This document shows, piece after piece, positions 35,555 through 61,598 of a stretch of 64,000 bases of DNA; position 1 is the first letter of the stretch; every line of letters begins with the position of its first letter. Position numbers and translations under genes: made by a program. The DNA comes from Nemertoderma westbladi. Taxonomy: Eukaryota; Animalia; Xenacoelomorpha. The stretch is taken from positions 186,001-250,000 of the forward strand of contig JAUCBJ010009136.1 in assembly GCA_032718475.1 (NCBI GenBank), written 5' to 3'. The notes under the pieces are model-generated. The model searched no databases. It was not told the DNA's origin and saw nothing but the letters and a program-made list of their open reading frames with translations.

Positions 35555-36147
35555 TGCCGGTTACCCGATCAGCTACCGGTCTGCGGTCTCTAACACTGCC
35601 CGTAGTTCAGTACTGAGGTAGTTCCGTCACCGCGTCGTGTCTGGCTGTCTGGAATAATTGAATATACTACTGTCAGACTGTAGCGTAGCTTAGGAACATT
35701 ATAGATAGCTGGATAGGCCAAAACTGAAATAAAATGACAACTTGGGCCAAAACTGAAATAAACTGTCAACTTGCCGGTCCGGTATGGTGGCCCATTAGAG
35801 TCACCAAATAATCTGGAGAAAAATCAGTGTAATTTTTTGATTTTACAAATGTATAATAAAATTAACCGGTACCTTGCAGCCTTGCAACATACACTACCGG
35901 TATCCATTTTCATGAAAGCAGGAAATAACGATTTAAATTTCCCGCGGTTCTATCTTTGATTAAGCTCTTAATTTCTCAATCAATGAGGCGTTTTCTGTTC
36001 TTCTAAAATGAATTGAGCAGCGCCGCTGTTTAATCACAGAATTTCAGCCTGGCCTGCTCATCCGTTTCATTCAAAATAAATTAAAGGGAACACAAGTAAG
36101 TTTCTTCACTACCCGGGTGGGGTTTATAATTATTATGTTGTTCTTAG

Positions 36148-41400: not shown

Positions 41401-43522
41401 AATAATCGCTACACTCTCGAAATAATAATCGCTACGCTCTTGAAATAATAATCACTACACTCTCGAAATAATAATCGCTATGCTCTCGAAATAATAATTG
41501 CTATGCTCTCGAAATAATAATCGCTACACTCTCGAAATAATAATCGCTACGCTCTCGAAATAATAATTGCTATGCTCTCGAAATAATAATCGCTACACTC
41601 TCGAAATAATAATCGCTACGCTCTCGAAATAATAATCGCTACGCTGTTGAAATAATAATCGCTACACTCTCGAAATAATAATCGCTACGCTCTCGAAATA
41701 ATAATCGCTACGCTGTTGAAATAATAATCACTACACTCTCGAAATAATAATCGCTACGCTCTCGAAATAATAATTGCTATGCTCTCGAAATAATAATCGC
41801 TATGCTCTCGGAATGCTACGCTCTCGAAATAATAATCGCTACGCTCTCGAAATAATAATCGCTACACTGTTGAAATAATAATCGCTACACTCTCGAAATA
41901 ATAATCACTACGCTGTTGAAATAATAATCGCTACACTCTCGAAATAATAATCACTATGCTGTTGAAATAATAATCGCTACACTCTCGAAATAATAATCGC
42001 TATGCTCTCGAAATAATAATCGCTACGCTGTTGAAATAATAATCGCTACACTCTCGAAATAATAATCACTACACTCTCGAAATAATAATCGCTACGCTCT
42101 CGAAATAATAATTGCTATGCTCTCGAAATAATAATCGCTACGCTCTCGAAATAATAATCGCTACGCTCTCGAAATAATAATCGCTATGCTCTCGAAATAA
42201 TAATCACTACACTCTCGAAATAATAATCGCTACGCTCTCGAAATAATAATTGCTATGCTCTCGAAATAATAATCGCTACACTCTCAAAATAATAATCGCT
42301 ACGCTCTCGAAATAATAATTGCTATGCTCTCGAAATAATAATCGCTACACTCTCGAAATAATAATCGCTACGCTCTCAAAATAATAATCGCTACGCTGTT
42401 GAAATAATAATCGCTACACTCTCGAAATAATAATCGCTACGCTCTCGAAATAATAATCGCTACGCTCTCGAAATAATAATCACTACGCTGTTGAAATAAT
42501 AATCGCTCGGCTCTCGAAATAATAATCGCTACGCTCTCGAAATAATAATCGCTACGCTTTCGAAATAATAATCGCTACACTCTCGAAATAATAATCGCTA
42601 CACTCTCGAAATAATAATCGCTATGCTCTCGAAATAATAATCACTACACTCTCGAAATAATAATCGCTACGCTCTCGAAATAATAATCAATACGCTCTCG
42701 AAATAATAATCGCTACGCTCTCGAAATAATAATCGCTACGCTCTCGAAATAATAATCGCTACACTCTCGAAATAATAATCGCTACACTCTCGAAATAATA
42801 ATTGCTACACTCTCGAAATAATAATCGCTACGCTCTCGAAATAATAATCGCTACACTCTCGAAATAATAATCGCTACACTCTCGACATAATTATCGCTAT
42901 GCTCTTGAAATAATAATCGCTACGCTCTCGAAATAATAATTGCTATGCTCTCGAAATAATAATCGCTACGCTGTTGAAATAATAATCGCTACGCTCTCGA
43001 AATAATAATCACTACGCTCTCGAAATAATAATCGCTACGCTCTCGAAATAATAATCGCTACACTCTCGAAATAATAATCGCTACACTCTCGAAATAATAA
43101 TCGCTACGCTCTCGAAATAATAATCGCTACACTCTCGAAATAATAATCGCTACACTCTCGACATAATTATCGCTATGCTCTTGAAATAATAATCGCTACG
43201 CTCTCGAAATAATAATCGCTACGCTCTCGAAATAATAATCGCTACGCTCTCGAAATAATAATTGCTACACTCTCGAAATAATAATCGCTACACTCTCGAA
43301 ATAATAATCGCTACACTCTCGAAATAATAATCGCTACGCTCTCGAAATAATAATCGCTACACTCTCGAAATAATAATCGCTACACTCTCGACATAATTAT
43401 CGCTATGCTCTTGAAATAATAATCGCTACGCTCTCGAAATAATAATTGCTATGCTCTCGAAATAATAATCGCTACGCTGTTGAAATAATAATCGCTACGC
43501 TCTCGAAATAATAATCACTACG
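38440..43522. repeat. Tandem satellite, 23-bp unit GCTACGCTCTCGAAATAATAATC (left part, interrupted by the BEL element)
   Basis: About 220 copies; resumes in phase after 61598. Confidence 0.98.
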
Positions 43523-43649
43523 TATAGAATTATATTCCCTAAATGCCGTGGATTTTCAAAATTTTTATTTTATTCGGATTAACTTTGTAAAGATTGCTTT
43601 GAGTTCTCATTCGTATTGGTTCTATCATTTGTACATCTATCGGTCAAGT

Positions 43650-43736
43650 GGTTCAGTAGCTCAGTCGGTAGAGCGTTGGAAACTATATGTGTAGTAGGTA
43701 TCGAGTTCGAATCCTAGTAAGTGCGAATTATTTTTT
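43650..43736 (+). promoter_or_regulatory. tRNA-like Pol III unit in the LTR (A box, B box, T6 terminator); second copy at 59839-59925
   Basis: TAGCTCAGTCGGTAGAGC (A box/D-arm), GAGTTCGAATCC (B box), then TTTTTT. Acceptor and T stems do not pair well. Confidence 0.7.
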
Positions 43737-43793
43737 GTACAGAATTTCAACTCGTTTAAATTAACCGCTACAAATTAATTGCATTTGTCTGTA

Positions 43794-43939
43794 CCAATGA
43801 GATTGTAGTTATTTTATTGTAACCAATGTCGTGCAAGTTATATATTAGCTGGACCAATAGCTATCTTTAAAACCTTGTTAGAACCCATAGAACAATCGAG
43901 AATTTTCTCGATTGATTGCGGCACAAATTTGCTATAAAA
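43794..43939 (+). promoter_or_regulatory. LTR Pol II promoter: three CCAAT boxes and a TATA box
   Basis: CCAAT at 43794, 43823 and 43854 (~30-bp spacing); palindrome CAATCGAGAA/TTCTCGATTG; TATAAAA at 43933; TTAGTT/TCAGTT initiator-like motifs downstream; AATAAA at 44053. Confidence 0.65.
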
Positions 43940-45132
43940 AGGTGCGATTTGTTCATTAGTTATATATATTCTCTCAGTTATTCAGTTATCTGATATTTGT
44001 TTATTCTGTCATTAGTTTTCAGATTACATTGTATTATAATTATATCTTCTGTAATAAAGTCAGAATATTCTCTCAGCTTTTCTATCTGTTTTACTATGGA
44101 TTCACTACGGTGAACAAACTTAGGGACAGGATGGCCGGCTAGAGATCGGGCCGCAGCAATGAACGGGAACATCACGGGAATGTAGACGAGAGACAACCCG
44201 CAATACCATTTAGAGTTATTCGCCCATCGCCTGAAAGGTTAGACAGCGTTCGACAGTGTCCATTGCATTAGAACTTGTAGGCTAGGGGGGTTGCTGTGTT
44301 TTCACCTGAATTGGGATTGTACCGTTCAGGCGGTAGGGCAGTTTACGTACTAGGCGCAAATAAATTGAGGCTATCAGGGATATACTAACATCTACCGTGT
44401 CCCCGCCAACGCCCTAATAGGAAGTTACCCGGACTACCTGGGTGACTAAAATTCTAGATAGGAGCCAGGATAGCTATTAGTACCCGTACGCCTACAGTAG
44501 TAAACTAACACATCTCTTCTTAGTATCAGGGACCTGGTACCTAAAATTGCCGAATTCTGGGCGTAGTATTAACCTTATGCCTGAATTTGAGTCCTGGAAA
44601 TACGCAAGAGGGGAAGGAACCTTATCATTTGTGAGTATTGGACCTACAAGTTACAAAATTAGAATATTCGTAAAATGCACACCGTACCCAGTAATTATAT
44701 ATGTGAAGGAGCAAAACTGTTTTGACCGTTCAGAATTAACACACGCGCGTTAGAAATTATTTACACCTCGAAATATATAAAATTAACTTTGTCCGTACTG
44801 TGCTTTGCCCGCTAGTTAGACATCTCCAAATCTCTGCCTGTACCTAGCTAGCGTCTCTTCGCCCAACCATATAAATCACACCGCGGCAAAGTATACGAGC
44901 CCCTTAGTCCGTCAGTGAGTCAGCCTGACTTTAGGATTCGCTGCGCGGGATTTGTTTTATCGAAGTTTGTCTGCTCGTAGACTGTTTTCTGCCTCACCGG
45001 TTATAAGAGATCGATACTGCAATATATTCGCTTACTTAGAGTTTACTGTTTTGGTGAGAAGGTCGGATTTATGATTTGATTTACAAACTTTACAGTAGGA
45101 TATTGCAGGTATTGTTACCGTCTCTTCCAATA

Positions 45133-45143
45133 GTAGGAATGTG
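45133..45143 (+). other. Primer-binding-site position, non-canonical (GTAGGAATGTG)
   Basis: Immediately follows the 5' LTR, lacks TGG, and is the exact reverse complement of 60564-60574 in the intact LTR. Confidence 0.55.
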
Positions 45144-46169
45144 TTTTACTGAACTACGGTTCGGTAGGACTAAAGTTTTTTGAAAATTTTGTATTTTGAG
45201 GTAAAAATTTGTATTTGATTAGCTAAGTGCTAATTTTTTGAAATAAAATTTGATTTGAACCGCGTGTAAAATATTTTTGGAATTGAATACCGGTGTTTAA
45301 AAAAGGGTTTAAATACCATATTGTACCGGTACAAAATTTTCGTAAAGTAAAACCTAACTCTTTTGTTTTTCAGGATTCAGAACTCATTTCTAGACTGTAA
45401 CGGGAGCAAGACCGTGTTTAGCAAGTTTGGGAGATAGATAACTCAACAACTTTGGTTGGGAAAATCGCGTTTCGTCCGCAACGTTAAAAACGGAAAGGTT
45501 CACGTTCGGTTTGTATCTGGGAATCTGTTTTTCTGGAGAATCATTGGAGTGGGTGAGTTTGAAAAGTTGCATAAATAAGTTAGGCATTACCGTATTAGTT
45601 AAAATTATTGTGGGTTCCACTGTCTCAAGTATTTATGCATTCCGTATGATTTCTTTGTTCATTGCTGAATTAGTCCGTATTATTGTATTTAATTTATCTT
45701 TTGATAACGCATATCGTTATCCGATTTATTTGTTATAAAATTGGCCGCTAGGCTAATTTTATTATATACTTATTCCGTGACATTTATTTGCTGTAAAATT
45801 GGCCGTTTAGGCTAATTTTATCCATCTGCTATAAAATCGGCCGGTAGGCTAATTTTATAAGACTGTAATTAGTACCGTTTTGTACAAATACGGTAAACTC
45901 GATACTTTGACACTCACTTTACTTGACTTACAACTACCGAAATGAGTGACAAACAAGACTATACGAAAAATACACAAACCGACTATGACTCATGTGACGG
46001 AGATAAGTCAGCAGCGGAAGAACAACAGGGGAAGACTCGCGAGCCTACCGAACCTACACCGTGTGCGTCACCAGTACATCCAACGGGAGTACCGGATGCC
46101 GTAGTACGAGGTGACGGCAGGACCGAGGACTTTCTAAGTGTTCCGCAACCTTGATATAGGGAAACGGAC

Positions 46170-49100
46170 ATGGTAAGTTCAGCAGGAAGCCAGGAAAGTG
46201 TGGTTAGAAGCGTCGGAGGTTACATGGCGCATATAACCAGGAGTATTGGAGAAGGTCATCGCATATTAGACGGGTTGACCGCTCCGATGTCTCGATTCGA
46301 GTTCTACACCCTCCAGGTTAGGGTACAGAGTAAAGTATATAAGTCCGTAGATAATCTAGTTGGCCTACAAGATCTAGCTAGACAGAGACAGGACATGGAT
46401 ACTCAACTTAGAATCCTCGAGAAACTAATGATCGCTAGAGAGAAACTGATCCAGTTTAAGTCGACGATTAGACAGATACAACAGGAACAAGCGGACCAGT
46501 TGTTAGGTGAGTCAGTTTCGGACGAATTATTACAGCCCGAGGAAGAACAGGAATTGTACCGATTGGATGGACAATTGAAACATTTGACGGACCACTTACG
46601 TATGTGCGGCGAAGACGTCAGCGATTCGGAAACCGTGCCGGAATATACGAGGGAAACTTCACCCGTACGAATCGAATCGGCACCGGGAATACTGGACCAA
46701 TCGTTAGTGAGTATTCGCAGCGAAATTGGCGAGATAAGTATAGTGACGTCAGAAATTTCCAGACAGCAACAACAGCACGACAGACAACGACGAGAAGCGG
46801 AGGAACAAGCACAACTGTTGACGGCACAAGCAGCGATGCAAGAAGAGAAACTACGCGTTGCGAATGTTGCAAGAATCTCTCATCTGCAAGAACAAGCCGA
46901 GTTGGAAGCAGCCGAGATGGAAAGGTTGGAGCTAGAAATAGCACAGCGAACAGCGACAGCTGAGTTAGCGCAACAAGCGGCAGCAGCTGAGTTAGAACGA
47001 CAAGCAGCAGCAGCGGAGTCGGAGCGACGAGCAGCAGCAGCGGAGTCGGAGCGACGAGCAGCAACAGCGGAACTAGAGCGACGAGCAGCGGAGTTGGAAG
47101 AACACAAGCGAGTTTCGGAAGCAAGAGCTGAAATGAAAAAACGGCAAATAAAGGCTCAATCAGCGATAAGACAAGCGGAGCTCGAGGCGCAACAACAACA
47201 GACGGAACAACGCGAGAAGGAAGTTAAACTTCATTTCGAACTCGGAAAGAAGGCGAGAGAATTAGCCAATGCGAAGGAAGATCTGGATCTACAAGCCCGC
47301 GATCGATCGATGAGATCTCGAGATGGACACGATCTAGACCAGTTAGAGGTAAGGCACCGCCAAATCCAGGAACGAATGAAGGAAGGTTCGGTAGGGGCAC
47401 CTGGACGAGAAAGACAATTAGTTAAGGACTTATGTCAAAGATTCCCTCAGGTAACTCCTATGTTTGCACCTGTTACGACTAAAGAACCTGTTTCGATTGC
47501 TGGTAGCAGTGATATCTCTCCTATCCATGGTGTGACGGAACACAGGTTTGTTATTCCGGACAAGTTTATACCTTCAAGAGCAACGTCGTCGCCTATTCCG
47601 AAAGTCAAGGTAAGTAACCCGCCGATTACAGATCGTAGTAGTTTGTTGACTGGACCTGCACTACTGACGACTAAACAGGTGAGTCCACCGTCGACCCCTA
47701 AACCTGTTACACACTACGCTTACCCAATGACGTTTCGACCAACAAGGCCTTTGGATTCAAAAGCGGTCATTCGCCCACCGATTCAGTTTACATCGCAATC
47801 TACGACTTCGAGGAAGACTTGTGAGCCTACCGAACAACGGAGAACAGTGGAGACGCGACCGTTCAACCAGTGTACATCGCAATCTACGACTTCGAGGAAG
47901 ACTTGTGAGCCTACCGAACAACGGAGACTAGTGGATACGCGACCGTTCAACCAGTGTACATCGCAATCTACGACTTCGAGGAAGACTTGTGAGCCTACCG
48001 AACAACGGAGAATAGTGGACGATGTTCCGAAACGGAACGTTAGAATTCGTACGACGCAACGAACGCGAGCACGTCGACCACCATATCCAGATGATAGTAG
48101 TACTTCGAGCGAATCGGATTACCCGAAACGCGAGGTATTTAGAACAGGGGCGGCCGATGAATATAAACGCGAGCGTTCAGACAACTCCTTTGCAGACAAT
48201 CCTCCACAGAATACACCAACACAGAAGGCGTTACAACCAACGGACGCAATTAGTACACAACAGTTCGCCGACATCATGCGACCAGTTGTTAACAAGTTGG
48301 CTCAGATCGAGGAACGTCTGGAGGAAGGTTACACCGACAGTTCGAGAAATTCCGAATTCGAACACAATAGACACCCGAAGGAACCACAAAGACCGGTACC
48401 TTCAAAACACACATCGTATCAGGGAAAGGCGCCAAGAAGGGAGAATATCAACCAGGTTACCAACCAAGGACGCGAAACTCTGAACGTTGCCGAGGAGATA
48501 GCGAAATTCGCAGCCAGACAAGGATTGCCGGTACAACAACCACCGAAGTTTTCCGGTAGCTCAAAACACTGGCATACTTTCGTAGACTATATCGAATCCC
48601 AGATCGCCGTGTGCGCCTTTACATCACGGGAGAAGTTTAATTACCTGCTTCAAACGTTGTCAGGAGAACCTAAACGTTTGGCGGAGACTTTCGTCGGTGT
48701 ACCGGACGCTTTCGAACTAGCGTACGATCGTTTAACTTCGATATACGGAGGTACAGTTAGTATGGCCAGGTCAGTAATAGAGGAACTCTGTAAGGGAGGG
48801 GCTATCACTAAACCCGTCGACTTACTAAAACTAGCTGACGAGATCAAGAACGCTATCACTACCTTAAGATCAATTGGACAACTTGATTACGGGAATACCC
48901 CTACAGTCCTATTAAAGATCATAGGACGACTCCACCATCGACTTCGTCGGGAGTGGAGGAAGGTCGAATACCAGCGAGAAGAGCGGGGAGGATTCTTAAA
49001 ATTAGAAGATGTGTACCTTTTAATATCCAGGGAGGCGGTAGTAGAAACTCGATCTAACTACACCGACCAGCACATCGTGGCAGAAGGGATCACATTGCCA

Positions 49101-52100
49101 TCCTCCAACCGACAAAAACCCCAGACAACATCCACTAAGACGGCCACTTACACCACACCGACGGAATCACGACAATTCTCGGACGGAGGTAGGGTATCTG
49201 CGCCCATTGGGACAAAACAAACGAGACAGCAACTTGGTACCGACTTCAGTGGCTGCCAATACTGCGAGCATCTAGGTAAGCGGTATATCGGTCACAAGTT
49301 ACGAGGTTGTCGACAATTTCGCGAGTTGAACTCGGAAGAGCGACGGCTGCAAATACGGCCACTGGACTCTTGTTGGCGGTGTACGCGACACGGACACGTC
49401 CGTAAAGATTGCCCAAATACCGACACTTGTCCATCCTGTGGACGCAACCACGACGGTCTGCTCCACACAGACAGCCACACGCCGACGAAACGCTTCGCCA
49501 GGGAACACCCGGAAGCAGCAGCGAGATGTGATGCGGCTTACCGAAAACGAGAATCGAAAACGACTCCAACCTTCGTGACCCATATTGAGGATTGCTTCTC
49601 AGAACAATCCGGATCGTCGGACGAAGAATCAGAAGACGACGAATATTCCAATGGAGACGAACAACCGTCGATCGCGCTTCTGACCACTGACCAACTGAAG
49701 GGATTCAGTGTAATCCCGATTAAGATCACTGGCACAAAGGGGAGTAAGAGGATCTACGCGATTCTAGATTCAGCCTCATCTCATAGCTACGTGGATGAAA
49801 AGATAGCTGACGTAGTGACGGATCTTAAACAAGGTAAGCATGTCAGTTATACAGTAAGTAGTATGCACGGACAGCGTGCAATACCAGTAACACGAGTTAA
49901 GTTGGACTTAGACTCTCTTCTTCCAAAATCGCAGCACAGCGAGAGGGAGAGGTCTTTGTTGCCCTTTAGAGATCTAACCTTTGCGGCCACGAAGGACTTT
50001 AGTAACCTACTAGGTCCAGTGCCGGAACAATCTCTAGAGGACCGTAAGTATTTCAGACACCTTGGTGTACCCGAATGTCCTGTCAATTATAGATCGGTAG
50101 CCATGCTGATCGGGACGGACCAATTCAACCTACATCAGGTGTGGGAAACTAGACCATCGGCAGTTGTAGCGGGAAACGCATACGCCTGCAGAACGCCGAT
50201 AGGGTGGTATACTCGAGCGCCTATGCGCACACTAGACGTAAGTGACGAGGAAGACGATGTACAGAGTACATGTAGTTTATTAACTACAAATTCAATTCAT
50301 TCCTTTTCACACGACGTGAACCATACTACACTACAGTCGACAAAACATAACAGACGTGTAACTAGTATGATAAGTCACAAGGAGCAGCTAATTCACCAGG
50401 TGAGTTTAGAACTTGGGGAGAAGACGAGTCAGCTAGAGATTCCATCGACGACAGATGATAGGCTTGCGAGTCTACCTACCCCAATAACCTCAACAGTGCC
50501 CGTCGAGATCGATGATGATGCGTTGAGAAATCATCAGTTGGAACAAGCTGTACTAGACAAGGAATTAACGGAGAAGACTATCAGGTGGTTGGAACAAGAT
50601 ACAGCTGAACCTGGTAGCTACGAACCTTGTATGTCAGAACAGGAGAAACAATCTCTGAAGATCATGGAAGATACTATCCGCCAGACGAAAGACGGACATT
50701 ATGAGGTAGGGATGTTATGGCGTAGCCAAAGTCCTAAACTTATAAACAACTATCCACTAGCCTTGAGACGTCTACACTCAATACGGCAACGTCTATTAAA
50801 GGACGAGAAAGCCCATCTGCAGTATAACACTCAGATGGAGACGTATTTGACTAAGGGATACGCTATCCGAATGACTAACCCAGAGATAGTGACTAACCAG
50901 ACATACTACCTGCCACATCACTATGTGAGACATCCCGACAAACCAGATAAAGTACGCGTAGTCAATGATTGTGCGGCTCTATTTGAGGGAATGTCCCTCA
51001 ATAGTGAGTTGATGGATGGACCAAACATGAATAATTATCTTATGGGGGTGATTATGCGCTTCCGTCAGCGACAAGTAGCTTTTACTTGTGACGTTGAAGC
51101 GATGTTTCACCAAGTGAGAGCGTTAGAGCGAGACAGAGACAGTTTGCGGTTCCTCTGGTACCCGGAAGGAGACTTAAGTCTACCACCGGCGACTTACCAA
51201 ATGCAAGTTCGCGTTTTCGGTGCCAGAGACAGCCCAAATTGCACGATGTACGCCCTAAAGCAGGCCGCTAGAGATCAGAAACACCTGTATGACCCAGAGA
51301 TAATTAGAATTGTGGAACGTGACTTTTATGTAGATGACGGTTTACAGAGTTGCGACACAGTAGAACGTGCTACAACAGTAGCACATCAATTACGGGACTG
51401 CTTAGCGGGCGGAGGTTTTAACCTCACCAAATTCGCCTCAAACAGTGCCGAATTAGTAGACTCATTCGGGACGACTGAGCGTGGAGGTGGTGACATAGAC
51501 CTAGAGTTCGAACCACTACCGACGACTAAGGTGTTGGGGCTCTTTTGGGACCCAAACACAGACAACTTCCGAGTGAAAGTGAGACTGGACAGTCAAGAGA
51601 ACACACTGACAAAGAGATCATGCTTGTCAAAGTTGAGCCGATTGTTCGATCCGTTAGGATTCATCAGTCCAGTGATACTGCAAGCCCGCATTTATATGCG
51701 CAGTATATGGAAGGATGGACTAACATGGGACGAGCCGATCTCATCAGACCAAGTGGACTTATGGAAGACCTGGGAGGCGGAATTATCTTCGCTAGAGGAT
51801 TATTCCATACCCAGGGTTTACTTTCCATTACAAAGTACATTTCCTGACAACTTGGAACTACACTGTTTTTCTGACGCCAGTGACAACGGTTTTGGTGTGG
51901 CAGCGTACTTGCGCAGACAAGTAGAATCAGACGAGTTCGATGTTTCGCTCATTACTTCTAAGGCTAAGACCATGCCTACTAAGTATATGACGACACCACG
52001 AGCCGAGCTACAAGCCGCAACCCTGTCAACCACCATCGTGAACCTCATACAGACAGAACTACAGTCGAGTTTACAGATATTTTATTGGACTGACGCAACG

Positions 52101-54671
52101 TTGGTTTTATTTTACATAAACAACGACACACTCGAATTCAAGACATTCGTAGCTAACCGTCGCGCAGAAATTCTAGATCGTTCAATAAAAGAGGATTGGC
52201 GACATTGTCCCGGACCACAAAACCCAGCTGATATTGCGTCGCGAGGAATGATGCCTGAGGAATTCTGTAAACCGGAGAACAAAGAATTTTGGCAACACGG
52301 ACCCCAATTCTTGCAGAAATCGACACAAGATTGGCCTCCGTTATACGACAACAAATCTAACACTATCCCAAAGGACGCCGAAATCAAGAAACCAAAAAAG
52401 GGGAAGACAAAGAAAAAGACAACGGCGGCAAAACTCAAGAAGAAACCGAAGGCAAAATGGAAAGATATAACTTCAAAGGTCAAGAGAGGAAGACTTGCGA
52501 GCCTTTCTACACCAGACATATCGCCAGACGGTCAACCAGACACGTTACTAGACGGTCAACCAGACATTCTACCAGACATTAGTAACGCATTGACAAACAG
52601 TAAAGCCGCAGTTTCCCTATTGGAGCGGCCTTCTATTGACAAACAACCAGATACGTTACCAGACGTATCGCCAGACACATTACTAGACAGTCGACTAGAC
52701 ACTAGTAACGTACTGACAAATAGTGAAGCCGCAGTTTCTCTATTGGAGCGGCCTTGTATTGACAAACTACCAATTTTGACACACTTGAGCAACCATAAGC
52801 AAGGTGAAACCTCATGTATTACAGATGTGGGTAGTACCTACGCTAATGTAAATACAGGTGTTACTTTGCGCTCAAGAGACATACCGAACTTGCAACCTAT
52901 GGTGAGACCTGGGATTAATGTCGGCAGGAAAATAAGTTTACCGAAACCTGCTGACCCCATAGAGTTCAAACCACCATTAACGATCGACTTACAAAGTACT
53001 GACGATCAAGGTAAGAAGACGAAGAAGGACAAATTACTTGTAGACCCCGACGGATCAACAGTCAACAAGGGAATACTTACCGGCGGACCCGTGGGCCCTT
53101 CTAGTAATTCAAAACCTTCCAAAATCTCCATTGACTTACCTGATGACGTCACAAATACTCATGTCGACCGTATTGTAAACCTAACAGATTCTTGGACAAA
53201 CGCTTGCCGAAAATTAGCGTGGATTGTACGTTTTGTACAATACGTTAAAGGCAAACGTGACTTTACACGTCGACTTACATTGGCTGAGATTGACAGGTGT
53301 GAGATTAAATTAATTCGCCATTACCAACTGCGATATTTCGCGCGCGAATTCACATCCATAAATCAAGGTCAACCAATCAAGTTGTCACCAATACTGAGTT
53401 GGAGTCCGATTATTTATAATGGCTTAATTTATCATAAATCTCGGCTTCAAAACATTGACTTTAACACAAACTTTAGGTACCCAATAATAATACCGCAACA
53501 CCACGAACTACAACGTGCAATGATACTGGACGCACATCTACATCTGAAACACGCTGGAAGACACCACTGTCTTTCCTACTTACGTACTAGATTTGTATTA
53601 ATTAGACCCAGTAAAGCATTAAGTTCAGTGACACGTACGTGTATTATTTGTAAAAAGGTACATTCTAGAATAGGTACCCAAGAAATGAGTGAACTACCAC
53701 AAGCACGACTTCAAGCATTCAAACCACCTTTTACAGAGACTGGAATTGATTGCTTTGGTCCCATACATACGAAACGTGGACGTATACTAGTAAAACGCTG
53801 GGGACTGATTTTCACATGTATGTCCAGTAGGGCAGTTCATATTGAACGTGTGATGGATCTTTCCACCTACGCGTTTATACTAGCACTGCGGCGATTTATC
53901 GCTAGACGCGGACTAGTAAAATGCTTGTACTCAGACCAAGGGACAAACTTTGTTGGTGCTCGGAATGAGATTGCTAGAGCCTTTAAGAAATTAGATCATG
54001 ATCAAATCTCGAACGAACTACAACCTCACAAGATTGTTTGGAAGTTCAACCCTCCAGATAGTCCTTGGAGAGGCGGAGTCTGGGAGAGATTGATTAGATC
54101 TATAAAGACAGCCATGGCAAAGGTCATTCCAGTAAACCACATATTAACAGACGACCAACTGACAACATTGTTTGTTGAAATCGAGGCAATACTAAATACT
54201 AGACCAATAGTATTAGTACCCGATGACAAACAATCTCAATTTGCTTTAACACCAGCACACCTGCTAATGCAGGCACCGACTACTTTGACGCCGATTTCTA
54301 TTCCAATAGAAAGCGACAGCTACGGTAGAAAAGCGTGGAAAATCACGCAACTACTAGCTAACAAATTCTGGGAAATATGGCAAAACCATTATTTGCCCTC
54401 TATTTCTGCCAGAACAACTTGGTACAATAACACCCGCGCATTAAAGCCGGGAGATCACGTGCTGTTGGCAGAAGTGAATCTAAAAAGACGCTTCTGGATA
54501 ACAGGTGTAATTTTAGCCACACATCCATCTATGGATGGAGTGACAAGAACTGTGACGGTACGGACAATTGACGGTCGTACAGTAGACAGACCGACTCAAC
54601 GTCTCGTACTTCTTGAAGAGACTCGTAACGAGTCTGGAGACTACAAATCTCCACCTAATACTAGTAAATAA
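46170..54671 (+). CDS. BEL/Pao Gag-Pol polyprotein (2833 aa; probably starts at 45942 with an in-frame TGA at 46152)
   Basis: Coiled-coil N-terminus; Gag core PKFSG..W..F; triple Cys/His knuckle (CQYC..H..C, CWRC..GH...C, CPSC..H..LLH); protease AILDSAS; RT YLPHH, RVVNDCAA, DVEAMFHQV, FYVDDG; RNase H FSDAS, PRAEL, WTDAT, NPADIASRG; integrase H-H-CIIC, GIDCFGP, YSDQGTNF, GGVWERLI. Confidence 0.97.
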   Translation: MVSSAGSQESVVRSVGGYMAHITRSIGEGHRILDGLTAPMSRFEFYTLQVRVQSKVYKSVDNLVGLQDLARQRQDMDTQLRILEKLMIAREKLIQFKSTIRQIQQEQADQLLGESVSDELLQPEEEQELYRLDGQLKHLTDHLRMCGEDVSDSETVPEYTRETSPVRIESAPGILDQSLVSIRSEIGEISIVTSEISRQQQQHDRQRREAEEQAQLLTAQAAMQEEKLRVANVARISHLQEQAELEAAEMERLELEIAQRTATAELAQQAAAAELERQAAAAESERRAAAAESERRAATAELERRAAELEEHKRVSEARAEMKKRQIKAQSAIRQAELEAQQQQTEQREKEVKLHFELGKKARELANAKEDLDLQARDRSMRSRDGHDLDQLEVRHRQIQERMKEGSVGAPGRERQLVKDLCQRFPQVTPMFAPVTTKEPVSIAGSSDISPIHGVTEHRFVIPDKFIPSRATSSPIPKVKVSNPPITDRSSLLTGPALLTTKQVSPPSTPKPVTHYAYPMTFRPTRPLDSKAVIRPPIQFTSQSTTSRKTCEPTEQRRTVETRPFNQCTSQSTTSRKTCEPTEQRRLVDTRPFNQCTSQSTTSRKTCEPTEQRRIVDDVPKRNVRIRTTQRTRARRPPYPDDSSTSSESDYPKREVFRTGAADEYKRERSDNSFADNPPQNTPTQKALQPTDAISTQQFADIMRPVVNKLAQIEERLEEGYTDSSRNSEFEHNRHPKEPQRPVPSKHTSYQGKAPRRENINQVTNQGRETLNVAEEIAKFAARQGLPVQQPPKFSGSSKHWHTFVDYIESQIAVCAFTSREKFNYLLQTLSGEPKRLAETFVGVPDAFELAYDRLTSIYGGTVSMARSVIEELCKGGAITKPVDLLKLADEIKNAITTLRSIGQLDYGNTPTVLLKIIGRLHHRLRREWRKVEYQREERGGFLKLEDVYLLISREAVVETRSNYTDQHIVAEGITLPSSNRQKPQTTSTKTATYTTPTESRQFSDGGRVSAPIGTKQTRQQLGTDFSGCQYCEHLGKRYIGHKLRGCRQFRELNSEERRLQIRPLDSCWRCTRHGHVRKDCPNTDTCPSCGRNHDGLLHTDSHTPTKRFAREHPEAAARCDAAYRKRESKTTPTFVTHIEDCFSEQSGSSDEESEDDEYSNGDEQPSIALLTTDQLKGFSVIPIKITGTKGSKRIYAILDSASSHSYVDEKIADVVTDLKQGKHVSYTVSSMHGQRAIPVTRVKLDLDSLLPKSQHSERERSLLPFRDLTFAATKDFSNLLGPVPEQSLEDRKYFRHLGVPECPVNYRSVAMLIGTDQFNLHQVWETRPSAVVAGNAYACRTPIGWYTRAPMRTLDVSDEEDDVQSTCSLLTTNSIHSFSHDVNHTTLQSTKHNRRVTSMISHKEQLIHQVSLELGEKTSQLEIPSTTDDRLASLPTPITSTVPVEIDDDALRNHQLEQAVLDKELTEKTIRWLEQDTAEPGSYEPCMSEQEKQSLKIMEDTIRQTKDGHYEVGMLWRSQSPKLINNYPLALRRLHSIRQRLLKDEKAHLQYNTQMETYLTKGYAIRMTNPEIVTNQTYYLPHHYVRHPDKPDKVRVVNDCAALFEGMSLNSELMDGPNMNNYLMGVIMRFRQRQVAFTCDVEAMFHQVRALERDRDSLRFLWYPEGDLSLPPATYQMQVRVFGARDSPNCTMYALKQAARDQKHLYDPEIIRIVERDFYVDDGLQSCDTVERATTVAHQLRDCLAGGGFNLTKFASNSAELVDSFGTTERGGGDIDLEFEPLPTTKVLGLFWDPNTDNFRVKVRLDSQENTLTKRSCLSKLSRLFDPLGFISPVILQARIYMRSIWKDGLTWDEPISSDQVDLWKTWEAELSSLEDYSIPRVYFPLQSTFPDNLELHCFSDASDNGFGVAAYLRRQVESDEFDVSLITSKAKTMPTKYMTTPRAELQAATLSTTIVNLIQTELQSSLQIFYWTDATLVLFYINNDTLEFKTFVANRRAEILDRSIKEDWRHCPGPQNPADIASRGMMPEEFCKPENKEFWQHGPQFLQKSTQDWPPLYDNKSNTIPKDAEIKKPKKGKTKKKTTAAKLKKKPKAKWKDITSKVKRGRLASLSTPDISPDGQPDTLLDGQPDILPDISNALTNSKAAVSLLERPSIDKQPDTLPDVSPDTLLDSRLDTSNVLTNSEAAVSLLERPCIDKLPILTHLSNHKQGETSCITDVGSTYANVNTGVTLRSRDIPNLQPMVRPGINVGRKISLPKPADPIEFKPPLTIDLQSTDDQGKKTKKDKLLVDPDGSTVNKGILTGGPVGPSSNSKPSKISIDLPDDVTNTHVDRIVNLTDSWTNACRKLAWIVRFVQYVKGKRDFTRRLTLAEIDRCEIKLIRHYQLRYFAREFTSINQGQPIKLSPILSWSPIIYNGLIYHKSRLQNIDFNTNFRYPIIIPQHHELQRAMILDAHLHLKHAGRHHCLSYLRTRFVLIRPSKALSSVTRTCIICKKVHSRIGTQEMSELPQARLQAFKPPFTETGIDCFGPIHTKRGRILVKRWGLIFTCMSSRAVHIERVMDLSTYAFILALRRFIARRGLVKCLYSDQGTNFVGARNEIARAFKKLDHDQISNELQPHKIVWKFNPPDSPWRGGVWERLIRSIKTAMAKVIPVNHILTDDQLTTLFVEIEAILNTRPIVLVPDDKQSQFALTPAHLLMQAPTTLTPISIPIESDSYGRKAWKITQLLANKFWEIWQNHYLPSISARTTWYNNTRALKPGDHVLLAEVNLKRRFWITGVILATHPSMDGVTRTVTVRTIDGRTVDRPTQRLVLLEETRNESGDYKSPPNTSK

Positions 54672-55331
54672 TTAGGAGTTTACAAATAGATTTCCACGTA
54701 CCTGTACACTGTAGTAAGGACAGCGGTAGAATTCCATTGTCTTTATATGTGAACATTGAGGGTAGTACCCTTATGTGTCACATAGGAGCGGGATTTGTAG
54801 GTATAAGAAATGGAATTCTACTTGGAACTCACAATATTGAGACATTTTCGAAATTTTAGACAATCCATTTGGATTTGAAAATTTTTAAAATTTTCTCCAG
54901 TGAATAGATTTCAGGGTACAGTCGGGTGGAACTTAAAATTAGAGAAACAAGAGAGGAAGACTTGCGAGCCTTTCTTAAAAATTTTAATTAAATTTTACAC
55001 GGTCTTGTTTCAATAAGTTACGTCAATAAATAGACTCCCCTATATTTATTACTAATTCTTGACTGCTTATTTTCTGATAATAGTTTGGGATCAAAAAGTG
55101 AGTATTTTAGACTCACAGCCAGTTTAGCCCAAATTCGTTTTTACTTCGGCAAAAATTTTAGATAAGAAGCAGCGTGTCATTAAAGAAACCCTAGATCTTA
55201 GGCTATGGGTAGGAGGTTAGAGCGTTGTCGAAGCCCAAAGGGCAGACGAAACTCTCACGTCTCCTCACAACTAACTACAAACTCTGTTGTATTCCCTCTA
55301 GTAGTAATGATTATGTAACTACACCCTAATT

Positions 55332-56507
55332 ATGGAGAAAGGGATACAAGGAGAGCCGAGATGGGGATATGATATCCAAGAGGAGGCAGCAGCGCCATTC
55401 GAAAGATTTGGAGCCAAGGATTATACTATATTTGGTATAAAAGAATTATCGGAAAGTACAGCGAAACTCGCGAGAACTAAATATGACTCGAACGTATTAA
55501 AGAGAAGGCAAAACGCATTAAACGAAAGAATCGAAAGTTTGCGCCAAACCTTCAACGAACTTTACCCGTACGATGCTTTGTGTGATACGGGAGACATTAG
55601 CGAAGACCCCGATACTGAAATTAGTCGTTTGTATCATACCATGCAATACCTAAAGGCGCACGAACCTATGCCCGCAGTACGCGATGAATTCGATGGAATG
55701 CATCTTTACAGACGAACTCGAGGGGACGATAGAGAAACCAAGGAAGCATTTTCAGTTTATAAACTTTATTATCAATGCGGTTCTTGTATGCGCGAACAAC
55801 GAAATGCGATTCCGATGCGTTTGAATAAGGAAAATCCCGAACCGATATTGGCGAGGTGTTCGAATCATCAACAACTACGCTACCAGGAAGGAGGGTATCC
55901 TTTATCGAATCCATATCATTCATTTGCTATGACCGGACCAAAGGCGGGAGAAACTGTCATTTACCCACCTAAGGTTGTTGAACCCGATGTATTTGAACTT
56001 ACGCTGGACGAGGCGAATCAGTCAACCCGCGAAAAGAAAGAAGCTCTTAGCCTATACAGAGCCTACAAGGCTTTCGAGAAAGGTGAGATGGAAGAATGGG
56101 GTGGAAGACTCGCGAGCCTACCTTGCCATTGGACGTCACACGATCAAACTTCAGCTAAGGAGATGACACCGGAAGTTTTCGAGAGCATAAACTTTGCTCA
56201 AAACGTTATTCAGAGATTACAGATTGCATCCCCGGAGAGGCCAAGAGAAATGCAACCGTATAGTACTTCAACTACGAAACCATTGAGTACGACACTCAAT
56301 TTCCCTATTAGTATACCAGTCCGACAGGATACGACGTACGAAATACCCATCGTGGATCATCCAGAAATCATTTCAAACTTGGAGTTTCTTCCTGCAGTTG
56401 TTTTCAGCGATATGAGTAAGATATATGATTTATGTAGACATATTACTCAAAAGGTCGTGCGTTGTGCACGAGGTTCAAGATTTCAAGATTTTCAAGGAAC
56501 TGGATAG
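55332..56507 (+). CDS. Accessory ORF A of the BEL element (391 aa), unknown function, possible CxxC...CxxH zinc site
   Basis: Open, non-repetitive ORF in the env slot; YQCGSC...ARCSNH; no evident signal peptide or transmembrane segment; overlaps ORF B (+1 frame). Confidence 0.7.
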   Translation: MEKGIQGEPRWGYDIQEEAAAPFERFGAKDYTIFGIKELSESTAKLARTKYDSNVLKRRQNALNERIESLRQTFNELYPYDALCDTGDISEDPDTEISRLYHTMQYLKAHEPMPAVRDEFDGMHLYRRTRGDDRETKEAFSVYKLYYQCGSCMREQRNAIPMRLNKENPEPILARCSNHQQLRYQEGGYPLSNPYHSFAMTGPKAGETVIYPPKVVEPDVFELTLDEANQSTREKKEALSLYRAYKAFEKGEMEEWGGRLASLPCHWTSHDQTSAKEMTPEVFESINFAQNVIQRLQIASPERPREMQPYSTSTTKPLSTTLNFPISIPVRQDTTYEIPIVDHPEIISNLEFLPAVVFSDMSKIYDLCRHITQKVVRCARGSRFQDFQGTG

Positions 56508-59061
56508 AGCTGGTGCCGACATAGCTCCGAGTAATCTGAAAGGATATCTAACCAAGACGATTCGTTTATGGATTGGAACCGGAACCTTCGAGTCGGATAC
56601 AGATATTGCCGCAGATTGGCGAGGTAAGGTTATTCGTTTCGATGAGGATAAGGATATAGAGAAGATTTGGCAACCTTCGGAAGAATTGTTGGATGAATGG
56701 ACTAGGACGTTTAGATCGTTTCAGGAAAACGGTTATATGTTTTACGATAACGAGGGCGGCAGTCATCAGCAGAGTTTGACTTCTAAGACTATACAGATTA
56801 GAGCGGCGGACGGAGTCCTGCACGTTTTCAGTAGACAGAGGAGCGACAAACGAATGCCGATACCTCCAGCGAATACAAAGCGACACCATCTTATCACCGA
56901 TATAGTAAAGAAGATGGACCAAGCTTGTAATATTGACGCTAGAATGCTACCGAAGATGGTAAGAAACATGATTTTAGATAAAACTGTTGTAAAGGTTGGA
57001 TCAGGAGTAAGGGAGGATTTAATTAGCGACTTTGCCGGCATGACGGACAGCGATGACCGACTACCGACACCATACGTCGACACTCGACCTCTTATTCTGT
57101 GGTCTATAGAACAGGGATATTTTCGTGAGTATAATACTCAGAAGACTGGAACTGGATACATTTCCTACCTGTTATTCAATTGGGATTATAAGGAAGGTAA
57201 AAGAAACAAGTATATTGAAACTTATGGAGAAGGTGATACTCCAGATATGAGTGAGTTTGAATCACAGCTTAAATGGAGAGGATGCGTGTATTGGGCTATT
57301 ACGTCACCTCCAAGAGCGGTCTTACAATATTATTTAGCGATAGAGTCGTCAGTGAATGTTTGCCTAATCGCCGACATTGTGTCTCGGACTCTCAAAAGAC
57401 ATCCACTTTGTCTCGGAGAAGATCATACGTTCTACATGGAAGGGAGAATTCGTACCGACGTGTTTAGACGATTCCTTGAACCCTTCTACAACTCCGACGC
57501 TCAGTGTAATGCCTTTACTCGAGCAGGATTTAGTATATTTCGAGACGTGTATCTTTGCTGTGCGGGATCTCTTATCGAAAGACCATCTATGTTTACATTG
57601 TTACCCTATGAAGGAGAACGTATCGTGGAAATTACGGATGAATCACGGCAGACGCGCGCGCCTATCGGTCACCTTGGTGATGAATTCGAAGTAACTACTA
57701 CGATCGCCGACGATCCTTTAGAGGAACTTCTTGAGATAGAAAGGAACCTCCCGAAGAAATCTCAGACGGAGATTCGACAACTTGAAGCAACAGATGCTAT
57801 AGTTTGTATACAACCTTCAGAAACCTACCAACCCATAGACCCAGATGATTATGATTATAGTGTGGGAGGAAGCGCTCGACCGATTGGAGATCTTATATAC
57901 GAACGAGTGTGGTACCCTGCCAATACGATGTGTAGTAAATGTGGCGTCGCTGGACATCATATGGCAAAGTGCAGTGGAAAGCACATTACTACGACTCAGC
58001 TAATCTGTGGATGGTGTGGGGATCAAGGGTCTCATACCTTTTATACTTGCTGGAGATTTATGGCTCAATGTACTTATTGCAATATAAAGGGACATCGAGC
58101 ATCTGAATGCCAACTAAGAGACATACCTTATGAACACGAATCTGTAAAACTCGTGAGGAAGTTATTTGATGAGTGGGAAGATTTAGCCGACGAACATGTA
58201 TCGGCACAAAGAAGACGGTTTCCGATGAGAGCGCATCTCGGATTTTGGGCGGTAAATCCTCAGACGATGATGTCGGAAGGATATATCTCCGCTATGCCCC
58301 AATATGACGAACTTATCGAGGTTGTCGATATTTTGCCCCACGACAGCGGATTCCGAGTGGTGCGCGAGTATCTGTTACAAATTCACCCGGATAACAAAAA
58401 CACGTGGAATTTTCAGAAAGTCATTAATCGGATTACGTATGGTGAATTCGATCGTTTCCGAACTGAAAAGCGGAACAAGGGAGCTTGGTTAACCGTCGCA
58501 TGGGCATACCGAGCCGCGTTTTACCACAAACGTATACGAGCGAGCGTATTCGAGGAAGAAGAGGTCCTAGAGGCGACAAATATACCAGCCACTCCGGTTG
58601 CGCCGTCTGCACGTCACCCTCGGGAGGACGGGCAGGGTAGGATCATACGGGTCCAAAAGGTGGGCCAACAATTAAAGAAAATTATTAATGTAGAAGAACG
58701 CAAGGGAGTTGAGCCGACTATTCGAGTTACTCGGGATACGGTATCACTTCCAAGAGAACCAGTAGGAGGATCGGGACATACACCAGCTGATCAACAGGGG
58801 GCGCAAGCTACTCTTGGGTCTGCGTCGTCCACTTCTCGCGCGTTCCCAGACGTTCTACCAACTGTAGTGACGACTGATCGGTCACGAGGAATCGGTCGAG
58901 GTTTTGGGATGCTAAATAAACGAATTTGCGAGGAAATAGTCGCACCGTCTCTCAACGTCCCAAGTAAACCAGTGACTCGCCCCACAAGTCCCATATCGCG
59001 AGCAAAGTCACCTGTGCGCAGTTTTCGAGGACGCGGCAGGGCTCGATCCACTAAGCGATAA
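56425..59061 (+). CDS. Accessory ORF B (878 aa): WRN/EXD/Mut-7-like DEDDy 3'-5' exonuclease domain, three CCHC zinc knuckles and a basic RG/RS tail
   Basis: ExoI-like MFYDNEG..TIQI; LPKMVRNMILDKTVVKVGSGVRED (compare WRN-family LP..L..LL.D..I.KVG.G...D); YVDT; ExoIII-like W....P....QYYLAIE; knuckles CSKCGVAGHHMAKC, CGWCGDQGSHTFYTC, CTYCNIKGHRASEC. Confidence 0.75.
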   Translation: MIYVDILLKRSCVVHEVQDFKIFKELDRAGADIAPSNLKGYLTKTIRLWIGTGTFESDTDIAADWRGKVIRFDEDKDIEKIWQPSEELLDEWTRTFRSFQENGYMFYDNEGGSHQQSLTSKTIQIRAADGVLHVFSRQRSDKRMPIPPANTKRHHLITDIVKKMDQACNIDARMLPKMVRNMILDKTVVKVGSGVREDLISDFAGMTDSDDRLPTPYVDTRPLILWSIEQGYFREYNTQKTGTGYISYLLFNWDYKEGKRNKYIETYGEGDTPDMSEFESQLKWRGCVYWAITSPPRAVLQYYLAIESSVNVCLIADIVSRTLKRHPLCLGEDHTFYMEGRIRTDVFRRFLEPFYNSDAQCNAFTRAGFSIFRDVYLCCAGSLIERPSMFTLLPYEGERIVEITDESRQTRAPIGHLGDEFEVTTTIADDPLEELLEIERNLPKKSQTEIRQLEATDAIVCIQPSETYQPIDPDDYDYSVGGSARPIGDLIYERVWYPANTMCSKCGVAGHHMAKCSGKHITTTQLICGWCGDQGSHTFYTCWRFMAQCTYCNIKGHRASECQLRDIPYEHESVKLVRKLFDEWEDLADEHVSAQRRRFPMRAHLGFWAVNPQTMMSEGYISAMPQYDELIEVVDILPHDSGFRVVREYLLQIHPDNKNTWNFQKVINRITYGEFDRFRTEKRNKGAWLTVAWAYRAAFYHKRIRASVFEEEEVLEATNIPATPVAPSARHPREDGQGRIIRVQKVGQQLKKIINVEERKGVEPTIRVTRDTVSLPREPVGGSGHTPADQQGAQATLGSASSTSRAFPDVLPTVVTTDRSRGIGRGFGMLNKRICEEIVAPSLNVPSKPVTRPTSPISRAKSPVRSFRGRGRARSTKR

Positions 59062-59711
59062 AAGGGAGGGCAAGGGTGGATGGAAGACTCGTGGGCCTTT
59101 CTTATGATTTGTGATTTATTTGAATTTATATTTATATTTGTGTTTATTCCGAACTTAAGCAATTTGTATTGTTCCGAATTTGTATTTAGAAAGTTTATAT
59201 TTAAAAGGAACTTATATTTGAAAGATTTATGTTTCATATTTGAGATGCAAAGGAGTTTATATTATTCTAAACTTATGCAGTTTATATTTAGTAAAGATTT
59301 ATATTTAGTAAGAATTTATATTTTATATTTGTAATTATTCCGAACTTATGCAATTTATATTATTCCGAACTTATGCAATTTATATTGTTCCGAATATTAT
59401 GTAATTTACATTTTATAGGCAGTATTTACAGTGAAATAGAAATAATTGTTTGAATTTATGTAATATTGAGATGCAATAGATTTATATTGGTGAATTTAAT
59501 TTAGATTTATATTGTACTTACTTAGTAAAGCCTTAAATACGTAAAGTTTGAATTTGTAATTATTTTGTATCGAATCATTACGTAGAAAGGAAGTATTGTT
59601 TGAAATTTAATTGTAAATATGTAAGTACGCCCTAAGTATTCTATAGTTTGATTGATTATTGGTGAAAACCGTATATTTTATGCACGATAATATCCTGTTT
59701 TCATGGAGCGG

Positions 59712-61598
59712 TATAGAATTATATTCCCTAAATGCCGTGGATTTTCAAAATTTTTATTTTATTCGGATTAACTTTGTAAAGATTGCTTTGAGTTCTCATT
59801 CGTATTGGTTCTAACATTTGTACATCTATCGGTCAAGTGGTTCAGTAGCTCAGTCGGTAGAGCGTTGGAAATTATATGTGTAGTAGGTATCGAGTTCGAA
59901 TCCTAGTAAGTGCGAATTATTTTTTGTACAGAATTTCAACTCGTTTAAATTAACCGCTACAAATTAATTGCATTTGTCTGTACCAATGAGATTGTAGTTA
60001 TTTGATTGTAACCAATGTCGTGCAAGTTATATATTAGCTGGACCAATAGCTATCTTTAAAACCTTGTTAGAACCCATAGAACAATCGAGAATTTTCTCGA
60101 TTGATTGCGGCACAAATTTGCTATAAAAAGGTGCGATTTGTTCATTAGTTATATATATTCTCTCAGTTATTCAGTTATCTGATATTTGTTTATTCTGTCA
60201 TTAGTTTTCAGATTACATTGTATTATAATTATATCTTCTGTAATAAAGTCAGAATATTCTCTCAGCTTTTCTATCTGTTTTACTATGGATTCACTACGGT
60301 GAACAAACTTAGGGACAGGATGGCCGGCTAGAGATCGGGCCGCAGCAATGAACGGGAACATCACGGGAATGTAGACGAGAGACAACCCGCAATACCATTT
60401 AGAGTTATTCGCCCATCGCCTGAAAGGTTAGACAGCGTTCGATCCTTGCTACCTAAGTATAAGACCAAAAGATCAAAAGGTAGAAGTAGTGACACGCTGT
60501 AAGCCCAAAATTACATCATAGGGACTGTACTGTCTTGATTCAGGAAAACCCACAGTAGACCTTCACATTCCTACGGGGGAGGGAGAGCGCAGGCAGATAC
60601 TAGTACGCAGATAGGACGTAGGCACACCGGTACAAGGCATACACATTGGTTAGGGTGCAGCAAACTGTACGCTTAACTCTTGCTAAGTACAGGTGCGTGT
60701 GCGACTATTTGCAGTACGACAGTGTCCATTGCATTAGAACTTGTAGGCTAGGGGGGTTGCTGTGTTTTCACCTGAATTGGGATTGTACCGTTCAGGCGGT
60801 AGGGCAGTTTACGTACTAGGCGCAAATAAATTGAGGCTATCAGGGATATACTAACATCTACCGTGTCCCCGCCAACGCCCTAATAGGAAGTTACCCGGAC
60901 TACCTGGGTGACTAAAATTCTAGATAGGAGCCAGGATAGCTATTAGTACCCGTACGCCTACAGTAGTAAACTAACACATCTCTTCTTAGTATCAGGGACC
61001 TGGTACCTAAAATTGCCGAATTCTGGGCGTAGTATTAACCTTATGCCTGAATTTGAGTCCTGGAAATACGCAAGAGGGGAAGGAACCTTATCATTCGTGA
61101 GTATTGGACCTACAAGTTACAAAATTAGAATATTCGTAAAATGCACACCGTACCCAGTAATTATATATGTGAAGGAGCAAAACTGTTTTGACCGTTCAGA
61201 ATTAACACACGCGCGTTAGAAATTATTTACACCTCGAAATATATAAAATTAACTTTGTCCGTACTGTGCTTTGCCCGCTAGTTAGACATCTCCAAATCTC
61301 TGCCTGTACCTAGCTAGCGTCTCTTCGCCCAACCATATAAATCACACCGCGGCAAAGTATACGAGCCCCTTAGTCCGTCAGTGAGTCAGCCTGACTTTAG
61401 GATTCGCTGCGCGGGATTTGTTTTATCGAAGTTTGTCTGCTCGTAGACTGTTTTCTGCCTCACCGGTTATAAGAGATCGATACTGCAATATATTCGCTTA
61501 CTTAGAGTTTACTGTTTTGGTGAGAAGGTCGGATTTATGATTTGATTTACAAACTTTACAGTAGGATATTGCAGGTATTGTTACCGTCTCTTCCAATA
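59712..61598 (+). repeat. 3' LTR (1887 bp, intact form)
   Basis: Direct repeat of the 5' LTR plus 60443-60719; preceded by a short purine-rich GGAGCGG; followed by CTACG. Confidence 0.96.

Follow-up and report, generated by a model that had tools for sequence, protein, structure and literature searches.

Which protein is encoded by the third gene of an 18,076-bp BEL/Pao long terminal repeat (LTR) retrotransposon of Nemertoderma westbladi (Xenacoelomorpha), and what might it do for the element? The element is inserted in satellite DNA within a stretch of 64,000 nucleotides (assembly GCA_032718475.1, contig JAUCBJ010009136.1, positions 186,001 to 250,000, forward strand), which is referred to here as the window and whose numbering is used throughout. 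The initial annotation had described an LTR retrotransposon carrying, instead of env, a DEDDy exonuclease with three CCHC zinc knuckles. The third gene is best read as encoding a DEDDy-type protein of the EXD2/WRN branch, and this is probably correct; more tentatively, its product may mature a primer that the element appears to make itself.

Re-reading of the 878-codon frame located the ExoI motif in YDNE (56743-56754; D108, E110), the ExoII aspartate in KVGSGVRED (56992-57018; D198 at 57016), the motif YVD (D219 at 57079) and the ExoIII region in W289-1..QYYLAIE (Y303; E307 at 57343), in the order first described. ExoIII takes the form YxxxE (Y303-xxx-E307), with glutamate for the usual aspartate; all four presumed metal positions are acidic and the tyrosine is in place. 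The domain resembles EXD2-, WRN- and Nibbler-type proteins (PF01612) in its ExoI DxE, its strand-helix ExoII motif, the following xxD strand and the tryptophan before the ExoIII helix, and differs from them in its two long insertions, its ExoIII and its low identity (about 20% to bacterial EXD2-like proteins). In the ESM Atlas, 24 of the 30 nearest clusters belong to PF01612 (at 0.92), and in a second query all 30 named clusters do (up to 0.93, with 174 shared features), one of them named as a Werner syndrome-like exonuclease; the two results are one source of evidence, and a value of 0.9 is also attained by 4-10 out of every 100 shuffled proteins. NCBIfam gives a DNA polymerase III (Pol III) epsilon match over the ExoI region (E-value: 0.028). 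Scanned with a profile of 120 bacterial EXD2-like proteins, the 878-codon frame comes out on top among 158 six-frame pieces, with the match on ExoII (E-value: 0.95). When the domain is aligned with these proteins, D108, E110, D198, Y303 and E307 fall on the catalytic columns and the blocks between them are collinear, with two insertions. The block-chain score is 22.1, against -2.1 +/- 7.7 for 86 natural controls (Z 3.1); 30 RNase D/Pol I pieces score 4-54. ExoII is in register in all 24 alignment settings and ExoI in 19.

Several results weigh against this assignment. No Pfam match was found for the exonuclease domain, and neither of our own hidden Markov models (HMMs) reached significance, with E-values of 20 for an RNase D/NrnC-type profile and 0.95 for the EXD2-like one; the hhalign probability is 3.9%, and seven gag-pol windows score higher. 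The former profile was built from 40 stand-alone bacterial PF01612 loci, which turned out to be of RNase D/NrnC type; each run took two of them from the wrong strand, and the domain was not detected. One of the 86 controls exceeds the block score (the reverse-frame shadow of a TonB-receptor-like gene, counted as chance), and the block path sets ExoI and ExoIII elsewhere than the alignment does. ExoIII, besides having E for D, is in register in only 3 of the 24 settings. No homologue of the third gene was found by word search at near and shorter lengths, by HMMER with residues 1-470 against 1.84 billion representatives, in metagenome and viral contigs, in phages, in PDB sequences or by exact look-up (0 of 3); plasmids gave three matches at an E-value of 4 only, and the best E-value among 101 bacterial genomes was 0.095. 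There is therefore no independent alignment of the domain. The unaided AlphaFold model is noise (predicted local distance difference test [pLDDT] 31.4) and its Foldseek search uninformative. A model guided by the alignment, in one of the three settings with ExoIII in register, has the expected strand-helix order and a pLDDT that is still low (43.5). Its structure matches, which are circular and weak, include EXD2, RICE1, NrnC, WRN, EXD1 and Nibbler: EXD2 is the best in Foldseek (E-value: 0.008; template modelling [TM] score 0.25), and all 20 rows listed by VIA read as exonuclease-domain proteins (best Z 3.1, root-mean-square deviation [rmsd] 5.0, 124 residues aligned). The domain thus has the DxE of ExoI and the aspartate of ExoII that characterize PF01612; given its YxxxE form of ExoIII and the lack of any significant profile score, it is called DEDDy-like and is not filed as a full member. 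The exonuclease claim is supported by the Atlas, the block test and the collinear motifs, and was not borne out by profile searches or by an independent fold. On this evidence the domain very probably has the DEDDy fold and, given that fold, is likely to be an active exonuclease.

Other copies of the element were seen through contigs of public sequencing runs; the stretch is present in five runs, four of them from one organism (individual runs are labelled X1, X2 and so on). X1-X3 contigs contain the third-gene region in every one of the 30 bins. Among the 40 third-gene differences listed out of 101, the 18 at or before the block described below (56432-56493) were left out and the other 22, in 56494-57430, were scored; 17 of these are synonymous, against 21-30% expected (p <= 6e-6). 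In gag-pol, 21 of the 28 in-frame differences are synonymous (among 40 listed out of 830). The differences were picked by support and are not independent events. This excess supports purifying selection on the third-gene protein, with a constraint about equal to that on gag-pol, and hence a working protein. One listed difference lies in a catalytic codon (57018) and is synonymous. Within 54425-59547, some copies have internal deletions that remove the third gene in part or entirely, as at the joints 55471/57508, 55491/57620, 54978/59547 and 56395/56615.

The initial annotation regarded the frame as intact over 878 codons, and this had to be revised. The 391-codon and 878-codon frames overlap out of frame, and at the block between them (Table 1) this copy differs from others by a run of substitutions and gaps, as seen in contigs of four runs on 56330-57430. 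Few X2-X4 contigs map across the block; for the two that span it (from X1 and X4), the length difference to the window is not divisible by three. It is therefore likely that the 878-codon frame forms the 3' part of a single gene of about 1,230 codons (376 before the block and 855 after it) that is broken in this copy. Because other copies differ in length at 56416-56507, two other readings were rejected: separate genes for the two frames, and a programmed frameshift in that interval.

The third gene is probably expressed from an env-style spliced RNA. In one X1 contig, whose shorter side covers 29 bases, 45552 is joined to 55302 across a GT..AG intron (joint 45551/55301; the run is labelled 'DNA?'), and canonical splice signals are present at both sites. 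The ATG at 55332 lies downstream of the acceptor, behind a three-codon upstream frame. An env-like product was considered and rejected, since neither frame has a hydrophobic anchor or a furin site (maximum 19-residue hydropathy 1.07 and 1.38); the gene, located after integrase and before the 3' LTR, does stand in place of env. The three knuckles are where they had been annotated, and a 240-aa piece that contains them matches Pfam zf-CCHC with an E-value of 0.00061, slightly short of the curated cut-off.

Table 1. Coordinates of the element and of the features of its third gene and primer site (window numbering).
Feature	Position	Strand	Details
Satellite array, 23 bp	38440-43522 and 61599-62604		flanks the element
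Target-site duplication, 5 bp	43518..43522	+	repeated at 61599-61603, within the 23-bp satellite array
5' LTR	43523..45132	+	1,610 bp; TA start, TA end; without a 277-bp segment of the 3' LTR
Primer-binding-site position	45133..45151	+	11 bases pair perfectly with 60564-60574, 7 more with 60553-60559
Splice donor	45550..45558	+	exon end 45552, intron start GTGAGT
gag-pol	45942..54671	+	DUF1759, knuckles, protease 49764, reverse transcriptase YVDD 51327, RNase H/A17, integrase, DUF5641
Splice acceptor	55270..55301	+	branch-point-like ACTAAC, pyrimidine tract, AG; exon start 55302
5' part of third gene, 391-codon frame	55332..56507	+	CxxC, coiled-coil-like stretch; without family match
3' part of third gene, 878-codon frame	56425..59061	+	after integrase, before 3' LTR
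Block that diverges in this copy, with the break that separates the two frames	56460..56493	+	from contigs of other copies
DEDDy-like exonuclease domain	56701..57390	+	D108, E110, D198, Y303, E307; insertions of about 33 and 24 residues relative to bacterial EXD2-like proteins
Three CCHC zinc knuckles	57931..58110	+	starts 57931, 58006, 58069; CX2CX4HX4C, CX2CX5HX4C, CX2CX4HX4C
3' LTR	59712..61598	+	1,887 bp; TATAAAA 60122, TCAGT 60163/60171, AATAAA 60242 and 60825
Predicted self-primer region	60553..60600	+	self-primer 60553-60574, G-rich hinge 60575-60580, LTR-end partner 60581-60600

What the gene product might act on is suggested by the element itself, which is classed with BEL/Pao on its pol domains, as an atypical member. 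Pfam identifies A17 (E-value: 2e-42), DUF5641 (4e-20), DUF1759 (7e-11) and an integrase H2C2 domain in gag-pol, and the motifs follow the order protease, reverse transcriptase, RNase H, integrase between flanking LTRs with a target-site duplication. Like the Belpaoviridae (PMC8742986, PMC3118150), it has a single gag-pol frame with this order, BEL-type Pfam domains, a third gene after integrase and a 5-bp duplication. The profile of the ICTV (the international committee for virus taxonomy) gives that family a genome of 4.2-10 kb with LTRs measuring 0.2-1.2 kb, and a tRNA primer site of 18 nt (PMC8742986), traits that are typical and not defining; here, in contrast, the genome is 18 kb and the LTR 1.9 kb, there is no such primer site, and the third gene is not env-like. 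An env is in any case present in few BEL/Pao members (PMC3118150). Upstream of the 3' LTR there is a short purine-rich run only, with no tract of at least 10 nt (a polypurine tract of about 10 nt being usual). A reverse transcriptase query returned five distant BEL contigs at 32-38% (1.5-6.9 kb, too short for a third gene), and an integrase query gave no match among viral contigs.

Both ends of the element adjoin the 23-bp satellite with the 5-bp duplication, so that the termini of both LTRs are TA..TA instead of TG..CA and the length is 18,076 bp. Loose contig ends in run X1 also mark 45132. An LTR ending near 60306, where there is BEL-like sequence, or in CA was rejected, since the duplication and the loose ends fix 45132/61598. 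The LTRs show 4 mismatches over 1,610 bases, and they and the element are young; 277 bases of the 3' LTR (60440-60716) are absent from the 5' LTR.

No TGG, and so no tRNA primer site, occurs within 30 bases downstream of the 5' LTR. Instead, the first 11 bases after the LTR are the exact complement of 60564-60574 at offset 0, a match length reached at 5 of 14,566 other internal positions. Seven further pairs beyond a 4x1 loop bring the predicted energy to -23.5 kcal/mol, against -14.8 at the next best site. On the far side of the G-rich hinge of 6 bases, the LTR end finds a partner in 60581-60600, which makes three helices and 35 pairs in total; this extended duplex scores -41.7 at the true junction, -18.5 to -39.1 at five chance positions and -31.0 on the antisense strand. 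Self-priming is recognized by 10 bp of complementarity to the LTR near the LTR end (PMC6317226), and the complete 3' LTR offers such a partner (at least 10 bases, 0-5 bp from the LTR end). In this copy the corresponding segment of the 5' LTR is deleted; other copies do have it, as 60443 and 60650 are covered by X2 and X3 contigs. None of the 40 differences listed out of 830 across copies falls in the pairing stretches. A primer that has to be built by splicing was excluded, as the 11 bases are contiguous in the DNA. The complementarity suggests that tRNA-independent self-priming is probable in this BEL/Pao element. An RNA running from TATAAAA 60122/TCAGT 60163/60171 to AATAAA 60242 would take its primer from another RNA molecule, and an RNA starting near 60553 and ending with AATAAA 60825 would have the Tf1 layout. 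Upstream of the predicted self-primer, 60501-60545 contains a donor-like GTAAGC with nearby AG acceptors, a possible small LTR intron for which no joint is listed.

This copy is defective in three respects: its gag frame has a premature stop (46152-46154, where contigs of other copies differ), its third gene is broken and its 5' LTR has no self-primer. It would therefore be non-autonomous.

The proposed model, in which the third-gene protein trims the self-made primer, is one that we advance tentatively and at less than an even chance. The third gene would encode a DEDDy-type 3'-to-5' exonuclease with three zinc knuckles, the domain binding metal via D108, E110, D198 and E307. In the element RNA, 60553-60600 would fold onto the LTR end and primer site, so that the hinge, 6 bases long, would stay single-stranded beside the 11-bp helix. 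Cleavage of the hinge would give the primer a short 3' overhang. The knuckles may anneal or hold this primer structure, and the exonuclease may trim the overhang back to the helix edge. No spacer separates that edge from the last LTR base, and trimming could therefore fix the TA terminus. Primer maturation was among the roles first suggested for the nuclease, and it gains support from the missing tRNA site and the LTR-complementary primer site, neither of which had been noticed. None of the present results speaks to the other two suggestions, proofreading and piRNA counter-defence. In Tf1, RNase H reportedly cuts at the self-primer, and a U5 stem is said to have a role. Tf1 also self-primes without a third gene, and by this analogy such an enzyme would not be needed in general. 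Other points count against the model as well. The link between exonuclease and primer rests on co-occurrence in one family. The extended duplex is marginal, with 8 of 150 windows as good under an unanchored null and one chance position at -39.1, which leaves the anchored 11 pairs to carry the weight. If the RNA follows the TATA/TCAGT-to-first-AATAAA layout, Tf1-style priming in cis fails and a primer in trans is required.

Four other explanations of the gene were weighed against primer trimming. The nuclease could be active and directed against host small-RNA defence, degrading or mis-trimming pre-piRNAs, siRNAs or duplex RNA of the element, with the knuckles as an RNA-binding arm. EXD2, EXD1, Nibbler and RICE1 are among its closest structural and language-model neighbours (the former through the circular guided model), separate spliced expression would fit an accessory factor, the family is abundant and diverse (22,530 contigs of X2 and 9,461 of X3 map to it), and a silencing role has been entertained for other DEDDy genes (PMC5408684). 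We consider this role unlikely, as the sequence gives no hint of it and nucleocapsid-type knuckles suggest a target in the RNA of the element itself.

Alternatively, the domain could keep the DEDDy fold and be catalytically dead, acting, like EXD1, Maelstrom and Egalitarian, as an RNA-binding adaptor for localisation or packaging of the element RNA. Inactive DEDD derivatives that keep RNA binding are known (PMC5408684), and the E in ExoIII, the two long insertions and the knuckles would agree with such a protein. However, acidic residues are retained at the four positions, the tyrosine of ExoIII is present, and the only catalytic-codon difference among the 40 of 101 listed is synonymous; an adaptor is also improbable. 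It is less probable again, and quite unlikely, that the motif resemblance is due to chance or too decayed to be informative, the gene being a selected knuckle protein of another fold. The absence of any significant profile or sequence match, the failed folds and the high Atlas values of shuffled proteins are what would be seen in that case, but three different methods (NCBIfam, ESM Atlas and block score) point to the same superfamily and the motifs match in order and spacing. A nuclease acting on DNA, which would proofread reverse transcription of a very long genome or process cDNA ends for a TA..TA integrase, is very unlikely: the size of the element (18,076 bp, 4.2-10 kb being usual; PMC8742986), its non-canonical termini, the action of WRN-type domains on single-stranded DNA (PMC5408684) and the DEDDy domain of Dada transposases, with its proposed 3'-end processing (PMC3706591), would suit it, but the gene appears to be expressed apart from pol and the ends of DEDDy-bearing bdelloid elements are the usual TG..CA (PMC5408684).

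An exonuclease as the third gene of a retrotransposon is less new than it first seemed. DEDDy ORF3s (third open reading frames) of LTR retrotransposons were described in 2017 in the bdelloid elements Juno1/2 and Vesta2/5, along with those of Athena/Terminon retroelements (PMC5408684); DEDDy genes are also found in Terminons (PMC6431247) and in Dada transposases (PMC3706591). The bdelloid genes have a DEED motif and were acquired at least twice, and RNA 3'-end processing or a silencing role has already been proposed for them, with activity not demonstrated (PMC5408684). Like them, the present gene is DEDDy-like, occupies the env position of an LTR element, has no transmembrane parts and shows an altered acid set. 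Unlike it, Juno and Vesta belong to clades of their own and have TG..CA LTRs of 159-551 bp, a DEED motif and, in the accessible text of PMC5408684, no described knuckle fusion; the element studied here is BEL/Pao with DEDE, three knuckles, about 1,230 codons and a TA..TA LTR of 1.9 kb. With Tf1, Tj1 and sushi it shares an 11-bp primer site that lies directly after the LTR and is complementary to its own LTR, with more pairing to the LTR end (PMC4600332, PMC6317226). Those elements differ in being Ty3/gypsy chromoviruses (TAR copia is a predicted case) whose primer is the mRNA 5' end and which use no exonuclease gene; in the present element the predicted loop is about 1 kb. In the searchable literature, to which Repbase reports and most subscription papers do not belong, neither a DEDD gene nor self-priming was found for BEL/Pao, nor a fusion of a DEDDy gene with knuckles. 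The gene would work like a bdelloid DEDDy ORF3, and what is new is the BEL/Pao host, the knuckle fusion, the size and the co-occurrence with a probable self-primer and TA..TA ends.

Further features were observed in the element and around it. Both LTRs contain a tRNA-like unit (59837-59925 and 43648-43736) that has a T run as well as motifs like an A box and a B box. Neither this unit nor the rest of the LTR gave a match in ARAGORN or Rfam; the unit is possibly an RNA polymerase III promoter or an insulator. A 20-base quasi-palindromic motif occurs in 8 copies at 3 mismatches or fewer (0 expected), at 46030, 47812, 47896, 47980, 50457 (minus strand), 52488, 54955 and 56103, and in two more at 4 mismatches (57647 and 59082). 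All copies are within the element, across different reading frames and non-coding DNA, and the motif is a candidate protein-binding, packaging or dimerisation signal. Besides the 23-bp satellite, the window holds tandem arrays of 22, 46, 41 and 66 bp, a heterochromatin-like setting. At 563-2886 there are frames of 467 and 283 codons, which presumably resemble the reverse transcriptase and integrase of another, gypsy-like element, and 33971-35560 is GC-rich (59%) with a minus-strand frame of 593 codons to which no identity was assigned.

For the DEDDy genes of LTR elements, Terminons and Dada transposons, the accessible literature gave no substrate or activity. In the present element a candidate substrate that is short and defined, namely the predicted RNA duplex at the primer site and its 6-base hinge, accompanies a separately expressible domain, which makes the question directly testable. 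It is doubtful as a whole, but conceivable, that a BEL/Pao lineage lost its tRNA primer, uses its own RNA for priming and encodes an exonuclease-knuckle protein that matures this primer and sets the TA..TA ends. If true, the third gene would be an element-encoded primer-maturation enzyme, its primer would be the first substrate concretely named for a DEDDy gene of any retrotransposon, and exonuclease capture would extend to BEL/Pao. The element also adds a probable case of tRNA-independent priming to a family described in the ICTV profile as tRNA-primed (PMC8742986).

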